Shown here in pieces: positions 2,621-64,000 of a DNA stretch of 64,000 bases. The notes beneath the pieces are model-generated. The model was given only the letters and a program-made list of their open reading frames with translations, ran no database searches and was not told where the DNA came from. Both the position numbers and the translations under genes were made by a program. The first letter of the stretch is position 1; each line of letters begins with the position of its first letter. The stretch is from positions 14,260,001-14,324,000 of the forward strand of contig NC_043012.1 of NCBI RefSeq assembly GCF_006345805.1. Reading direction: 5' to 3'. This DNA is from Octopus sinensis. Lineage: Eukaryota.

Positions 2621-2800
2621 GGGAGAGTTTACGAAAAAAACAAAAGACGAAGACAGGTGGTGTACAAAACAAACAGATGTATTAGTATAACGCTCAGGAA
2701 TAGAAAAAGTATTTTAAGTTTCGAGCCTACGCTCTTCTACAGAAAGGGGCACAGAAAAAACAAGGAGAGAAAAAAGGAGAGAAGAAAAGGAGAGAAAAAA
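2621..2800 (-). mobile_element. ~200-nt hammerhead-bearing element, family H1, core variant CUGUAGA
   Basis: Homologous to 11371-11530 and 52859-53058. Minus strand 2712-2745 reads ttt-CTGTAGA-a-GAGC-gtag-GCTC-GAAAC-TTA-aaa. Abuts (TA)n. Confidence 0.65.
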
Positions 2801-3403
2801 TATATCCCATATATTTAACACATAAGCATCACATGTATGTCACATTATTGGATAAGTAAATGCACACATTACATAATGGACATGAAATTTATTTTACAAT
2901 TTTGTGTTGTAAGTGAGGTATGACTCTTGAACAGCATAACGTGTTTTGTTTTTAAATAATGTACATATAATATAGGAAATCGCATAATAAAATCAAAAAC
3001 GTAAGTAATACAATTTTCAGGCGTACATGTTGATGCAATTATGTGTTTTTGTGCGTATGTCTGCCGTTTGTGTGTATAAGCGTCCTCCTTGATGTATGTG
3101 TATGTATTTTTGTAGAATACAGATTTCGGAACGTTATGTCACACAAAACAAACTTTCTCGAATATCGGTGAATTTCTTGTGTATACAGATATGATACATT
3201 ATTTCTCGAAGAAAGCGGAAATAGATTTTAAAAAAAACAAGATAAAACGATAAAATTCCATTCATTGTTTGTATAGAGTTCTAAACTTCTCTGGATGTGC
3301 TTAGCCTATTTTTTTACTAATGGAAGCAGATATGAAGACACATACTCCAGTAAAAAGTACCCTCAAAGCTAATCAAGATGACATTATGATATCTTAATTG
3401 TTA

Positions 3404-3568
3404 TATTGGTTTCAAATTTTGGCACAAGGACAGCAATTTCGGGAGAGGGCGGGGTAAACCTATTACATCGACCGAGATATACAACTGGTGCTTATTTTGT
3501 GGATCCCGAAAGTATGAAAGGCAAAGTCGACTTTAACGGAGTCTAATCTCAGAACGTAAAGACGGGCG
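3404..3568 (-). mobile_element. SINE family B, partial
   Basis: Reverse complement matches the body and the tail ccttgtgccaaaatttgaaacc of 47098-47311. Confidence 0.7.
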
Positions 3569-4944
3569 TTTCTGCATTGTCATACTGAAAGGAAGATAGA
3601 GAAATTATTTCCTTGCAGAATAAATTTCCTCGGGTAGTTTCATTCGATTTAACTTTAACAGCAAATTATTTGATGATCTAAAGCCATAAGGTTGTTGTCA
3701 TTGTTGTTGTTGTTGAATTGGTGAGCTTTGAACATGCAGACTTGTGATGAAAGACATCCGAACAGAAATAATCTCGTATTTTTGTCCAGGATTACTGGAG
3801 TCTTGGATACTATTTCTCTGAGTAGAATCTCCGAAAGTGTCTTCTACCATTGGGTTTCTCCAAGAATTGTTGGTGAAACTAGGTCGGTGTAGACTGTGTG
3901 GGAGTCCGTCCGATAGATTGTATCTCAGATTCAAAGGGTTAGTCTTATCACCTTCTGTTCTGTGTCACGCTAATTTTGCCCAAGTTTTACGTTAAGGTTA
4001 CACGTGTTGATCTAATAGCTTTTTAGCAGCTCACATAATACAAGGTAACTCTGTGCAAGTTGTGCAGCCTAATAATTACTGGGCTTGTGATATTTGTTGC
4101 ACTGGATCACTGCTAATTTCAAGAACGAGAAAGTGGAACTGGCTCTGCAAATGCATGTTGGCTATTTATCGTATAGTATGCTCACCAGTCCAAGATAGCA
4201 GCACCAACATCACACTTTCTTCATGAGTCCAGTGGTGATTGGAAAAGAAACGAAGGAGCAGTAAGAGAATGCCAGTGGAAGAGCTTCGGGTTTGACCCTG
4301 ACGACACATCAGAGTATTGAACTAAAAACACTGTGCGATTGTATCTTACAAAAGACTCATTCGTCGAAGCGACGAAAGAGACCACAAGCTGGTAGTTCAA
4401 TAGATTAAACAACTTGTATGCTCGTCTTCATAACTGACGCAAGATTTATTTTTATTAAGATAATCATTATCGTAGATACTTTAATTCTTTAACATGCATA
4501 TAAATAAATAATAATTTTTGTAAACACTATATTTTTAGCCGTAAGGAATATCCGACCCATGTTAACCGATATAATAGATGTAGACATGCAAAATATCATT
4601 CAGCGAGATTCGTGCAATTTTCTGTTTTTACAAACTACAATTTCTCATTTATCAAATACGTAAGGATAAAACAGTAAGAGTAATAAACAACACAGTTACA
4701 ATAAAAGATCAATGCAAAAAACGAAAACTAAAGATATGTTTCATATTAATAAATATACAGAGCAAAAATGATTTATGATACGTGATATGGAATGATACAT
4801 TCAAAATTGTATACAATAAATATATCAGAACGGATATAATATTCTATGAAGAAATACACCACAGGAATTGTGAAATATAATTCAGCAACAATGTACAAAC
4901 CTCTATAAATTATATTGGTCCACACACTATGCCATTGTGATTAT

Positions 4945-5135
4945 TTAACCCCAGGTCAGTAATGTTCTATCTGAACTATGAGGAATGGCGTTCCAAGTAT
5001 GACCGTCTCGTCTTTTATTTTGCGTTTCTAAAACTACACTATTCAATGTGTACTAGATCTTTCAAGTAGGTATGACATGAAGGCGCGTGGAAGGGGCAGA
5101 TATATAGCTGTTGTTTCTAGCAGGTCAAGCGACTA
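4945..5135. repeat. Old interspersed repeat, related copies at ~6045-6200 and inverted at ~7298-7432
   Basis: Shared ttctagcaggtca...gact and ccccaggtcag motifs among the three sites. Confidence 0.45.
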
Positions 5136-6199
5136 CGAATATTCTCCATCGTAATACATCTATCCTTGTTTATCACAGGTACTTGGTTCTCCACACAACC
5201 AAAAAAGATGAAAAAAAAATACACCATATTAAATACACCAGCGTTAAACGAATGATGGAACATACAGGAAAAATATCTTTCTGAGACCCCAAGTTCTCCC
5301 GGGCATTTCAAATGGTCACTGGAGCTCGCTTTTACGATCCAGGCAGATTATTTGAGTGATTACTGATCCCTAAAATCAGACAACAATTCGTGATGCGCAT
5401 AACACGGTTCACAAAAGGAGTACTATGTTGTCCTAGATCCGTGATGGCTGAATCAGTGATAAATGATGATGGATGTGGTATTGATAAAGCCAGTAACTCA
5501 CTGTGTCATGCAAATGACGATAGTCTTCAATGTTGTGCAAAGGACGTCGTCTAAATCAAAGACCGCGCGGTTCAGGGAGAGAATATTGAAGAAGCATAAA
5601 ACGGAAAACAATGCCAATAGGAAGTGACTGATGGTTGCTTGTAAATTAATAACTAGAATCCAGAGGAAGAAGCCGTCGGCAGTTATTTGCCATGGCTTCA
5701 TTATTTCTTAGCGCAGATATTTGATGCAATTGATAAACAAGATTTGCAACAATATTCACAGCTGGCAAGAGATATGCATCCTATACACCGTTGACAATGA
5801 GTGTTAATAATATTTGGTTTTCTTAACAATTCCAATTTAAATATCTATTCGATTCGTTACTCAGTCATTTCACACCAGCCTTTTGAATATTTATCAGCAA
5901 AGAGTCATGCAGTGTTAGGATGAAACAGAGACAAAGGGTCGGAAATTAACTCTCTTTAAGTTAAAACAAATGGAAACTGTTATGAAGTCACTGATTAACA
6001 CGAATTAATTCTTTGTGAACGATAAATTTTAGGTGCTGTTGTTGTTGCTGCTGTTTATCCCAGTTCATCATTAAGTGGTCATAGTAAAGACTAATCTGGC
6101 TCTCGGATTATCTCGGATTATACCATGGTACCTTCTTTAAGATGGTACGTTGTGGTTTCAAAGGCATTTGATTAGTTCTAGTAGGTCACATGACTAATA

Positions 6200-61675: not shown

Positions 61676-62242
61676 GTGAGTGACCATTTCAATTTATAGA
61701 AGATTTCAAATTAACGTTTTGCGATTTATCTGAATGGAAATTCATTTAAAACCTATCCAGCTGCTATTTATTTAAATAGGCATTTGTAAAACATCCTGCT
61801 ATTTTATTTTCTGTATCCTATTGTTTTTAGTATTTTTTCTTTTTATGTTGACGTTTTTGCTATTCGATTTTGTTTGTTTCTTTTCTTTTTTTTTGTTTTG
61901 TTAATTCTTTCACTTGTTGTGTTTGGTTTGAAGTTTTCTACGGTTGTTTGAGTTGTCTTTTTTTCTTATAGATTTAACAAATTTATTTCTTGCTGTTTAC
62001 TTTTTCAATTAATATAATATAAACTTAACAGAAAGTACGTATTCTCTCACAAGCTGATTTCTACATATAGATATTACAAAAATATATACGTAATGATTAT
62101 ATGTGTTTGTGTTTATGTATTTGTGTGCGTATGTGTGCGCTCAAAAATATGTATCCAGTATTTCTAAAATAAATTATGCATACTTAAATGAAACTGGCGT
62201 GTATTTCAGAATGTTATATATTCATGTGCTTATATATGAGTT

Positions 62243-63691
62243 AAGATTTACGTACACACACACACAATAACACACACACACACACACACACACACACACA
62301 CACAAACACACACACACACACACACTCGTAGACAAAGCTGTCTTGATAGCATGATTGAACCTCGGGGAAATCGCACTGTGACCTGTAGTGTTTATTTATT
62401 GACAGTAAATCACAACATATGTTGAGCAGAATTGGGCCCCTTGATGCGTGAGGCTCCCGAGCAACTGCCAGGTGTACATATTCCATAAGACGGCATTGCT
62501 CATAAACACACGCACACCTGTACACACACGTATAAACATAGATTAGATTAGATACATACATACATACTTAAACGCATATATGAATGTTTACACTCCTTTA
62601 TGTATATGTACATGTGTGTGTGTGAGACCGAGTGCGTGTGTAATTGCTGTGTGCGTGTAAGAATGTGTGTGTATGTGTAAACGTGTGTAACTGTGAGTGT
62701 GTGTGTTTGTGTGTGTTTATGTGTGTAAAACATAACATATTGATTCAGGCATATTGTACAGAAACACATTGCACTCTGGGATACACGCAATTTTGAAAAT
62801 TTTATGAAATATTCCATTAAGATACCAGCGTGTTTTGATTATAGAATTTTCATATACCATTTATTCCATTTATTCTTTAGGGCTTTGAGTGTTGTTTTTT
62901 TTCCCCAGATACAAAATTAAGAGCATCATATGAGTTGAAACTTTTATTGTAGAATTTGATAAACACCCTTCATAAAACAACAACCGTAACAACTCTAAAA
63001 CAAAAATTGATAAAATACAAATCCAGTAGAGCACCACATTGTTAATGTAGTCTGAGAAGTTTCTTAGATATGGTTCCCTGAGAGAATTTATTTGCGTGTT
63101 TGTGTGTGTGTATATATATATGTGTGTGAGTGTGAGTATGCATGTGTATATATAGGCATATATATACATATAATATATGTATAAACATAAACACTTATAT
63201 ATATATACACATATATGTACATGCATATATATATATATGTTGAAAAAAGTTGTATTGGGTATAAAGATACCATAAACAAGTATAAAAATGGAGAAAATAT
63301 GATGTTAAAGTCAAAATTGAATTTAATACATACGCACGTTTCAAAAGACAATACAAATATGTAAGAAAAAAAATAATAATAATCAAATTTATGCAGTCAT
63401 TCTCATCAGTGTATGTATGTATGTACCTTTCTATCTATCTAATCTATGTTTATACGTGTGTGTATACGGGTGTGCGTGTGAGTTTATGAGTAGTGCCGTC
63501 TTATGGAATGTGTACACCTGGCAGTTGCTCGGGAGCCTCACGCATCTATATATGTTGTGATTTACTGTCAATAGATAAACACTACAGGTCATAGTACGAT
63601 TTCCTCGAGGTTCAATCATGCTATCAAGAGAGCTTTGTCTACGAGTGTGTGTATGCGTGCATACACTTGTGTGTGTATGTGTACGTCAATC
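62243..63691. repeat. ~300-bp inverted duplication (62243-62567 vs 63411-63691)
   Basis: Long non-microsatellite reverse-complement match, e.g. ctcgtagacaaagct.tcttgatagcatgattgaacctcg and gaggctcccgagcaactgccaggtgtaca. Confidence 0.9.
63326..63414 (-). ncRNA. Type I hammerhead ribozyme motif
   Basis: Minus strand reads ataca-CTGATGA-gaatgac...gtctttt-GAAAC-gtgc-GTA-tgtat. Confidence 0.75.
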
Positions 63692-63748
63692 TGTTTTTTC
63701 TTATTGAATTTTATTAATAACCTTTTTGATGTTCTTCCTAAAACTCTT

Positions 63749-63846
63749 TACACTAATGAGAATAACTATGCATAACTTTATAATTATAATTATAATTATT
63801 ATTATTTCTCACATATTTGTATTGTATTTTGAAACGTGCGTATGTA
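63749..63846 (+). ncRNA. Inverted hammerhead copy with a mutated core (CUAAUGA)
   Basis: taca-CTAATGA-gaata...tatttt-GAAAC-gtgc-GTA-tgta. 63749-63907 is the reverse complement of 63240-63413. Confidence 0.6.
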
Positions 63847-64000
63847 TTAAACTCTCTATTTTCATACTTTTTTATGGTATCTTTATACCTACAACGAATT
63901 TTTTCAATTGTTACTTTCATATTCTTAATACTTGCTCTGACTGAATTTTATGAATATGATGAATTTTTATTGGAAATTATTTTATTTTTTCTCTCTTTAT

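Follow-up and report, generated by a model that had tools for sequence, protein, structure and literature searches.

The window analyzed here, a 64,000-nt stretch of Octopus sinensis DNA, contains 13 type I hammerhead-like motifs that we sort into about seven families (A to G), together with two ORF-bearing remnants of Penelope-like elements (PLEs). Core positions C3 and H17 are given with each feature where applicable.

2432..2586, minus strand: probable C-terminal tip of a second PLE GIY-YIG ORF (tblastn, 97 PLE proteins, best E 5e-4)
2622..2805, minus strand: A1; C3 2742, A6U, H17 2715; stems I and III decayed; 3' end at (TA)n
11373..11530, minus strand: A2; C3 11503, A6U, H17 11476; stem I 5 bp, stem II 4 bp, ACGU palindrome; TA repeat at 3' end
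18832..19039, plus strand: A4, family A relative with canonical core; C3 18904, H17 18930; 208 bp; stem III palindrome decayed; (TA)n both sides
20394..20782, plus strand: family E; C3 20488, perfect core; GUC site 20557; (TA)n both sides
22148..23033, plus strand: Neptune/Nematis-type PLE ORF remnant, broken; thumb, linker, GIY-YIG; split at ~22394-22573
22392..22545, minus strand: B2; C3 22503, H17 22468; core damaged; ACGU palindrome and stems I/II kept
52861..53059, minus strand: A3; C3 52989, A6U, H17 52962; 199 bp; (TA)n both sides
53078..53313, strand not assigned: family C head-to-head insertion; both arms U4C; (TA)n both sides
within it, minus strand: C left arm; C3 53215, H17 53186; extra tail of ~72 nt
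within it, plus strand: C right arm; C3 53247, H17 53276
53331..53749, plus strand: family D; C3 53531, perfect core, stem I 7 bp; GUA site 53595; (TA)n both sides
57231..57582, plus strand: B1; C3 57528, H17 57563
60634..60842, plus strand: family G; C3 60646, perfect core, stem I 6 bp; AUA site 60694; 3' end at (TA)n; 5' boundary approximate
63240..63414, minus strand: F1; C3 63409, perfect core, H17 63331; 3' end at (TA)n
63749..63907, plus strand: F2, divergent partner of F1; C3 63753, G5A

The scattered type I hammerhead motifs are real and occur far above chance. All 12 sites named in the original prediction proved to be hammerhead-like motifs, and our count of about seven families agrees with its 'at least six'; its list lacked a 13th copy, which has a damaged core (C3 22503, minus strand). 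Descriptor scans were performed in three tiers, with 200 local (250-nt) dinucleotide shuffles as controls. Tier T1, which demands a perfect core, a stem I of at least 4 and a stem II of at least 3, gave 4 hits against a shuffle mean of 0.02 (maximum 1). Allowing as many as one core mismatch (T2) gave 7 hits (shuffle mean 0.38, maximum 2), and a relaxed descriptor drawn up post hoc from the known sites (T3) gave 6 (shuffle mean 0.53, maximum 3). The shuffled-control check thus favored the motifs, as the observed counts of all three tiers were reached by 0 of 200 shuffles. Ten of the 12 listed sites pass at least one tier, while C3 2742 and C3 63753 pass none and were recognized by homology alone.

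The core had been described throughout as CUGANGA, a form that we find at six of the 12 sites (C3 18904, 20488, 53531, 57528, 60646 and 63409) and not at the other six. These carry U at core position 6 (A6U; C3 2742, 11503 and 52989), C at position 4 (U4C; C3 53215 and 53247) or A at position 5 (G5A; C3 63753), and F2 is predicted to be inactive. Counting all 13 sites, six cores are perfect, six have one substitution (A6U three times, U4C twice, G5A once) and B2 has two. Around the core, the three stems or a palindromic stub occur above chance; they are weak in family F, where stem II is weak in the 63409/63753 pair and that of F1 has a long AT-rich loop. The claim that stems are unrelated between families does not extend to 18904, which is homologous to 2742, 11503 and 52989 and has a stem II in common with them. 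Similarly, stem III is not short at 20488, 53531, 60646 and the 53215/53247 pair, which have 8-12-nt near-palindromes: an 8-nt palindrome in D, a 12-nt perfect palindrome in E (one copy in the window) and a 12-nt near-palindrome in G.

Within families (two to four copies each, plus unphased contig variants, 40 of 104 listed), the changes are one-sided and pair-keeping or fall in loops, and no two-sided compensatory change was seen in this material. In public contigs, a variant at 52992 (A3 site), present in ~99%, brings back a pair in stem I, and one at 53261 (family C) restores stem II. The loop base in stem III of C is variable (76% in X1), as in the Hydra families, and so is core position 7 of D. 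Because this variation fits the fold, we count it for the explanation given below. An Rfam model scan, suggested as a check of the original prediction, contained no hammerhead among the 150 of 192 matches listed for the window, and four local Rfam scans had no hammerhead match either. The Rfam miRNA and snoRNA rows were discarded as hairpin or microsatellite artefacts. MFE z-scores for eight motifs were unremarkable (+0.5 to -1.8); the failure of MFE folding to single out the motifs is expected of three-way junctions.

The two 87-nt arms of family C form a near-perfect palindrome with stems I and III of the Hydra-clade type. The left arm and the Hydra-2_Ajap hammerhead have 20 identical nt in common, spanning stem III, and the stem I pair and stem III arms of Hydra-2_aMil are the same as those of family C. 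In public contigs, the short end of C (53151-53153) is joined to TA runs. Tail depth equals ribozyme depth while depth at the center is ~10-fold lower, suggesting that most genomic copies of C are without the inverted arm. A one-sided tail combined with an inverted truncated arm is found in C, D and B1. In D, the last 52 nt are inverted at 53434-53485 (100% match), followed by a tail of ~100 nt; B1 runs from an inverted left arm with 3' tail (57231-57352) through a tRNA-like piece (57356-57389) and (AAT)n to the hammerhead.

The Neptune/Nematis-type remnant retains three blocks with 48-67% identity to P0001, a 772-aa protein with RT, GIY-YIG and a CX2-5CXXC linker; a search for loci related to P0001 yielded 138 candidates, 0 of them confirmed. 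Its ORF is broken by the antisense insertion of B2, which removes it as the parent of family B. As a source of the hammerhead elements in general it fares no better, given this interruption and a family C that points to the Hydra clade. The alignment at 2432..2586 reaches the last residues of PLE proteins and then a stop, with a weak profile iE of 0.12. The (TA)n at which A1 ends is also where this tip is truncated on its 5' side, and no intact hammerhead was found behind the tip. Searches by tblastn and profile with 97 Neptune-type proteins, a set without Hydra queries, found no PLE coding upstream of the hammerheads, and no hammerhead fragment in the window is contiguous with PLE coding sequence.

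The link to (TA)n held up: 10 of 13 sites, which are not mutually independent, have a (TA)5+ run no more than 250 nt away, compared with 24% of background positions. F2 and the two copies of family B are exceptions. Families A, C and D are matched by tens of thousands of public contigs, and the relative depth of A is very high. The raw-read run X22, with the same organism label as X1, gave just 52 partial matches, mostly microsatellite. Pattern scans with the family motifs returned 0 matches in metagenomes, 0 in viral contigs and two in prokaryote genomes, L001 (without the core) and L002 (a Prevotella contig). PLE-type pieces total ~4.2 kb, or about 6.6% of the window with rough boundaries, matching the published PLE share of the Octopus vulgaris genome (6.83%, 190 families); this speaks against the suggestion that such a density is undescribed in this lineage.

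Our explanation, which we consider probable, is that type I hammerheads mark the 3' ends of about seven PLE families, pasted by PLE enzymes into (TA)n as short 5'-truncated copies, and that self-cleavage is probably not required for insertion. Mobilization by Penelope-like machinery, as proposed in the original prediction, is supported by the inverted-arm-plus-tail layout, the (TA)n targets and the match of family C to Hydra-clade PLEs. This layout is described for PLEs in the accessible text of Craig 2021 (PMC8557442) and is explained by two RT start sites in Frangieh 2024 (PMC11167929), where hammerhead mutants of a purified PLE had no effect on insertion in vitro. Dispersed single and opposite-strand minimal hammerheads were also read earlier as truncated PLEs (PMC4209133, accessible text).

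The PLE transcript would carry its hammerhead near the 3' end, as in published PLEs, by sequence match in family C and presumably in the other families. [quoted passage not shown] Copying would mostly halt after 100-400 nt, often once an inverted second copy had been added, as the layout of C, D and B1 suggests, and the copies would decay after insertion. With a palindromic stem III, two motifs on one tandem transcript could cleave as a dimer, and lone or opposite-strand genomic copies would be expected to allow no dimer cleavage in cis. Several points count against PLE ends. Besides the missing join to PLE coding sequence, the few X22 matches, the absence of two-sided compensatory changes and the lack of Rfam hammerhead matches, the tails here are 70-100 nt, longer than the usually quoted 30-40 nt; near-equal 5' starts of A3 and A4 hint at a unit-length master; and the tRNA-like piece of B1 hints at a SINE-like master.

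The latter two hints bear on a reading that we think unlikely, in which the most abundant families (A, perhaps B) came from short non-autonomous masters borrowing PLE enzymes, either a ~200-nt mini-PLE or a tRNA-headed SINE, so that the insertion chemistry would be the same and the donor would differ. A mini-PLE would suit the very high depth of family A, the lack of an ORF upstream, and the starts of A3 and A4, which precede the core by 71-74 nt in elements bounded by TA runs. However, while A1-A3 have common 3' ends, A1 and A2 extend less far 5', TA runs adjoin family A in public contigs at several 5' points (52941, 52980 and 52984), and contig depth drops 5' of the ribozyme. The case for a SINE lies in B1, where an anticodon arm and a B-box-like stretch, with the inverted arm beginning beside them, make the sole such match in the window to a post hoc pattern that matches anywhere in 9 of 200 shuffles. 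Against it, the piece occurs in one copy with a weak T-arm, no A box and no Rfam tRNA match, and B2, 85% identical to the B1 hammerhead copy (57528), is cut off on its 5' side before the piece. Relaxed aragorn hits in the window (23) were mostly noise and were set aside. The SINE-like hammerhead elements of Schistosoma, named Sm-alpha, are of tRNA-Arg origin. They offer a precedent, a Pol III-type head followed by a hammerhead (PMC6765202, accessible text), as B1 would imply; B1 differs in its single copy, incomplete head and PLE-type inverted arm and tail.

Improbable, in our judgment, is an origin as non-LTR retrozymes or solo monomers, with tandem units cut by the ribozyme, circularized and reinserted. 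Retrozymes are described as short, non-coding, type I and thought to be PLE-derived and PLE-moved (accessible text of PMC7229834 and bioRxiv 10.64898/2026.07.22.740005), and their families have solo monomers (bioRxiv 2026.07.22.740005, accessible text). The units here are likewise 0.2-0.4 kb and non-coding with type I motifs, the cores and stems of D, E and G being intact. Yet circular RNA and tandem units that each contain a hammerhead are what define retrozymes, whereas the window has no tandem with a period >22 nt, no adjacent direct repeat of any unit and never two same-strand hammerheads in one unit. Additionally, the units end at TA tracts, about 40-225 nt beyond the cleavage site rather than at it, and the cores of A and C are substituted. 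These features, and the insertion of PLE mutants in vitro, speak against the 'ribozyme-processed' units originally envisaged. The inverted structures C and D could also be taken for MITE-like DNA transposons or fold-back accidents with an incidental ribozyme look, given the 52-nt perfect inverted repeats of D ending at TA and the near-perfect palindrome of C. We consider this highly improbable and rejected it because both are asymmetric, with one arm running on into a same-family tail as judged by depth, because C matches Hydra-clade PLE hammerheads, and because the descriptor counts beat every shuffle.

Truncated PLE 3' ends, our preferred reading, have close published counterparts. Metazoan PLE minimal hammerheads (Cervera & de la Pena 2014, PMC4209133, accessible text) share with the motifs here a type I fold, an additional base following A9, a stem I of 4-5 bp and a palindromic 15.2-16.2, and likewise form many heterogeneous families, mostly single dispersed motifs with some opposite-strand pairs 100-700 bp apart. 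Families A and B fit this minimal type, F more loosely. In contrast, the core variant described in that text is U3-A8 and family A instead has U at position 6; the window is also without a full PLE flanked by such minimal motifs. Hydra-clade PLE hammerheads (Craig et al. 2021, PMC8557442, accessible text) have (TA)n targets, a 3-4-bp stem III and a 0-3-nt loop, as here, and D, E and G have this arrangement in common by layout only. C departs from them in U4C and a shortened stem II, and D and E in long stem II inserts. Judged by its hammerhead sequence, family C is of the Hydra-clade type and a putative member of that clade.

As a class, such motifs are nothing new: animal genomes contain dispersed PLE hammerheads in massive numbers, and an octopus PLE with a hammerhead and a preference for (TA)n has been published. 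That element, Hydra-1_Obim of Octopus bimaculoides, overturns the suggestion that such motifs were undescribed in this lineage; a 12-nt motif of its hammerhead is absent from the window. Outside the Lunse et al. 2017 survey of PLE hammerhead variants, in which A6U or U4C may already appear, we found no literature on these specific families. We tentatively raise the possibility that two of the most abundant PLE-mobilized families (A and C) spread genome-wide with substituted cores (A6U, U4C) and the fold kept, the fold being a selected handle for a PLE protein rather than a knife, or the cores being new working ones; in that case A would represent a non-autonomous mini-PLE of ~200 nt, and B a SINE with a tRNA head that relies on PLE enzymes for its movement. 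Both substitutions are predicted to weaken self-cleavage, and the function of PLE hammerheads is called unclear in the accessible text of Craig 2021 (PMC8557442). Since families with a changed core multiplied beside the canonical A4, they provide a natural test of whether cutting or the fold is under selection. Lastly, because standard Rfam scans miss these motifs, annotation counts in cephalopods, such as the 235 Hammerhead_1 of the giant squid annotation, are probably too low.

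The original prediction listed 12 coordinates, and a hammerhead-like motif was present at each of them (12/12). Using a strict descriptor (perfect core, stem I of at least 4 bp, stem II of at least 3 bp, self-complementary stem III, and UH), we recovered four sites, with core position C3 at 20488, 53531, 60646 and 63409, whereas 200 local dinucleotide shuffles averaged 0.02. Allowing one core mismatch yielded 7 sites versus 0.38 in 200 shuffles, and a relaxed tier, composed after the sites were known, yielded 6 versus 0.53; another scan gave a similar excess. Ten of the 12 sites pass some descriptor tier. 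The CUGANGA core, claimed throughout, is found in six sites, whereas the other six carry substitutions: U6 in A1–A3, C4 in both arms of C and A5 in F2. Self-BLAST of the window identified a thirteenth copy, B2. No motif received an Rfam score among the 150 matches listed of 192 or in four local scans, and folding z-scores were ordinary. A (TA)5+ run lies within 250 nt of 10 of the 13 sites, compared to 24% of background. An origin of the motifs as a MITE or by accident is the least credible explanation that we considered. The motifs are real, and form a new set of members within an already known class, probably that of the hammerheads of Penelope-like elements (PLEs).

We counted about seven families, in agreement with the "at least six" proposed. 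Family A comprises A1–A3 and a relative with a canonical core, A4, while family B has two copies. Stem III is a minimal four-base palindrome in A and B, with a weaker version in F, and an 8–12-nt near-palindrome in C, D, E and G. Descent of families A and B from short non-autonomous masters is unlikely. In three insertions, C, D and B1, the inverted left arm continues beyond the 3′ limit of the right arm; C has 87-nt arms and a ~72-nt tail, and D has 52-nt arms and a ~100-nt tail. This arrangement resembles the typical PLE layout described in Craig 2021 (PMC8557442), namely 5′ truncation, a truncated copy lying inverted alongside, and a tail on one side. At 52861–53749, a single TA tract holds families A, C and D in succession, with a short TA run between neighbours.

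We consider it likely that the motifs derive from the 3′ ends of PLE transcripts, which target-primed reverse transcription would have inserted at TA tracts, with copies truncated early in that reaction and decaying afterwards. The motifs, the TA link, the inverted arm with its tail, the high multiplicity and a Hydra match support this reading; the donor RNA, the enzymes and dimer cleavage we infer. Of the proposal of ribozyme-processed retroelements mobilised by PLE enzymes, the PLE-type mobilisation and the (TA)n preference are supported and the ribozyme processing is not; no hammerhead unit in the window was found in tandem. That the motifs are retrozymes is very improbable. In Frangieh 2024 (PMC11167929), the PLE tail is traced to two internal RT start sites, hammerhead mutants leave insertion unaffected in vitro, and RNA-seq showed no reads that terminate where the ribozyme would cleave.

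Searching the supplement of Craig 2021 by motif gave a match to a Hydra-clade consensus. The left arm of C is identical to the Hydra-2_Ajap hammerhead over 20 nt (53201–53182), and C agrees with Hydra-2_aMil in the stem I pair and in the arms of stem III. The stem III loop base varies across Hydra families and likewise among C contigs. D, E and G have the common Hydra-clade layout but lack a long match. The targets of Hydra elements are (TA)n tracts, and O. bimaculoides has a published member, Hydra-1_Obim, that is listed with its hammerhead (Craig 2021, PMC8557442). The remnant at 22148–23033 matches P0001, a 772-aa PLE relative with RT and GIY-YIG domains and the CX2-5CXXC linker that Neptune and Nematis carry; an Octopus bimaculoides protein matches P0001 at 61% over 40% of the searched region. 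An antisense B2 insertion splits the remnant, which is therefore a target rather than the parent. The segment 2432–2604 (minus), with a weak PLE C-terminus match at 2586–2432, is probably a second 5′-truncated PLE retaining only the last ~45 endonuclease codons. This piece and A1 have one (TA)n tract in common, and a possible hammerhead relic lies near 2372–2350. No hammerhead fragment joined to coding sequence was found within the window.

Contigs placed on 52861–53746 numbered 29,754, 25,476 and 3,159 records in three public sequencing runs (X1, X2 and X9). Summed contig depth is not copy number, and only the order of families was read from it: A (about 1–11 million, X1 and X2) exceeds C (about 0.7–1.9 million, left arm and tail), with D far below both (about 600–11,000). 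Depth in A is maximal on the ribozyme and decreases toward the 5′ side; in C, tail and ribozyme are equally deep. Junctions with TA runs occur at several 5′ points of A and at the short end of C. In hundreds of contigs the match is confined to the ribozyme and both flanks diverge, indicating that subfamilies exist. Against this, a raw-read run bearing the organism label of X1 (X22) gave only 52 partial matches and thus almost none of these very abundant repeats, which may reflect a label or filter effect.

The best-supported contig differences are compatible with a hammerhead fold. The change at 52992 (~99%) re-establishes one pair of stem I in A3, 53261 restores stem II in C, and 53173 and 53226 alternate G-U and A-U; 53191 lies in the stem III loop and 53535 is position 7. 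Among the 40 rows listed of 104, none varies at the A6U or U4C positions, so that most copies of A and C probably carry U6 and C4, although a canonical minority could be hidden. A natural A6C variant has low activity, and U4C is less active in vitro but still sufficient for a viroid (PMC3088659); A6C shifts preference to Mn2+ (PMC7151607). The passages of both papers covered here do not mention A6U.

With rough boundaries, PLE-type pieces add up to about 4.2 kb, a 6.6% share of the window; in O. vulgaris the share is 6.83%, spread over 190 families (PMC13282606, supplement), in a study that does not mention ribozymes. Cervera 2014 (PMC4209133) had already reported minimal hammerheads scattered by the thousand in each genome, most of them lone motifs interpreted as truncated PLEs and some in opposite-strand pairs.

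The window is AT- and microsatellite-rich animal DNA packed with transposon debris, and no host gene was recognised in its 64 kb. Its other features are:
57356–57389, tRNA-like stretch within the B1 inverted insertion, about 140–170 nt upstream of the B1 hammerhead
16464–18663 and 57679–58999, a related pair of LINE fragments that contain RT domains (the first matches Pfam RVT_1)
9300–9696, 11109–11296, 24659–24816, 34710–34830, 40108–40550, 51502–51879 and 59101–59284, at least seven pieces of a dispersed SINE-like family headed by a tRNA-like sequence
62311–62548 and 63437–63659, inverted duplication of ~230 nt (84–92%), right arm between F1 and F2
15000–15620 (minus), remnant of a Mariner-like transposase (weak match to the Mos1 HTH, E 0.083)
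800–1341, 21248–21622 (minus) and 25171–25753, LINE-like fragments with no Pfam match

The tRNA-like stretch has a 3-bp anticodon arm with a 7-nt loop, a 5-nt spacer and a B-box-like motif; it is possibly a SINE head, a single-copy lead toward a tRNA-headed, PLE-moved SINE. Further tRNA-like heads with B boxes lie near 29067 (minus) and 46882. The 3′ ends of the two LINE fragments are 93% identical over 458 nt, and the first terminates in the TA tract holding A4. For its reverse transcriptase (17461–18585), the best named relative among the matches listed is from Argonauta hians (61%); other listed matches are mostly 42–50%, with three unnamed at 62–71%. Together with the O. bimaculoides match to P0001, this makes an octopod source likely. 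The three LINE-like fragments resemble the end of R2/R4-type LINEs that encodes the restriction-like endonuclease, and 870–1341 and 25294–25753 are 72% alike. No hammerhead element was detected inside the degenerate 1.7-kb (TA)n tract at 47855–49554. Lastly, an imperfectly self-inverted segment of ~350 nt (19723–20071), flanked by TG repeats, is possibly a MITE.
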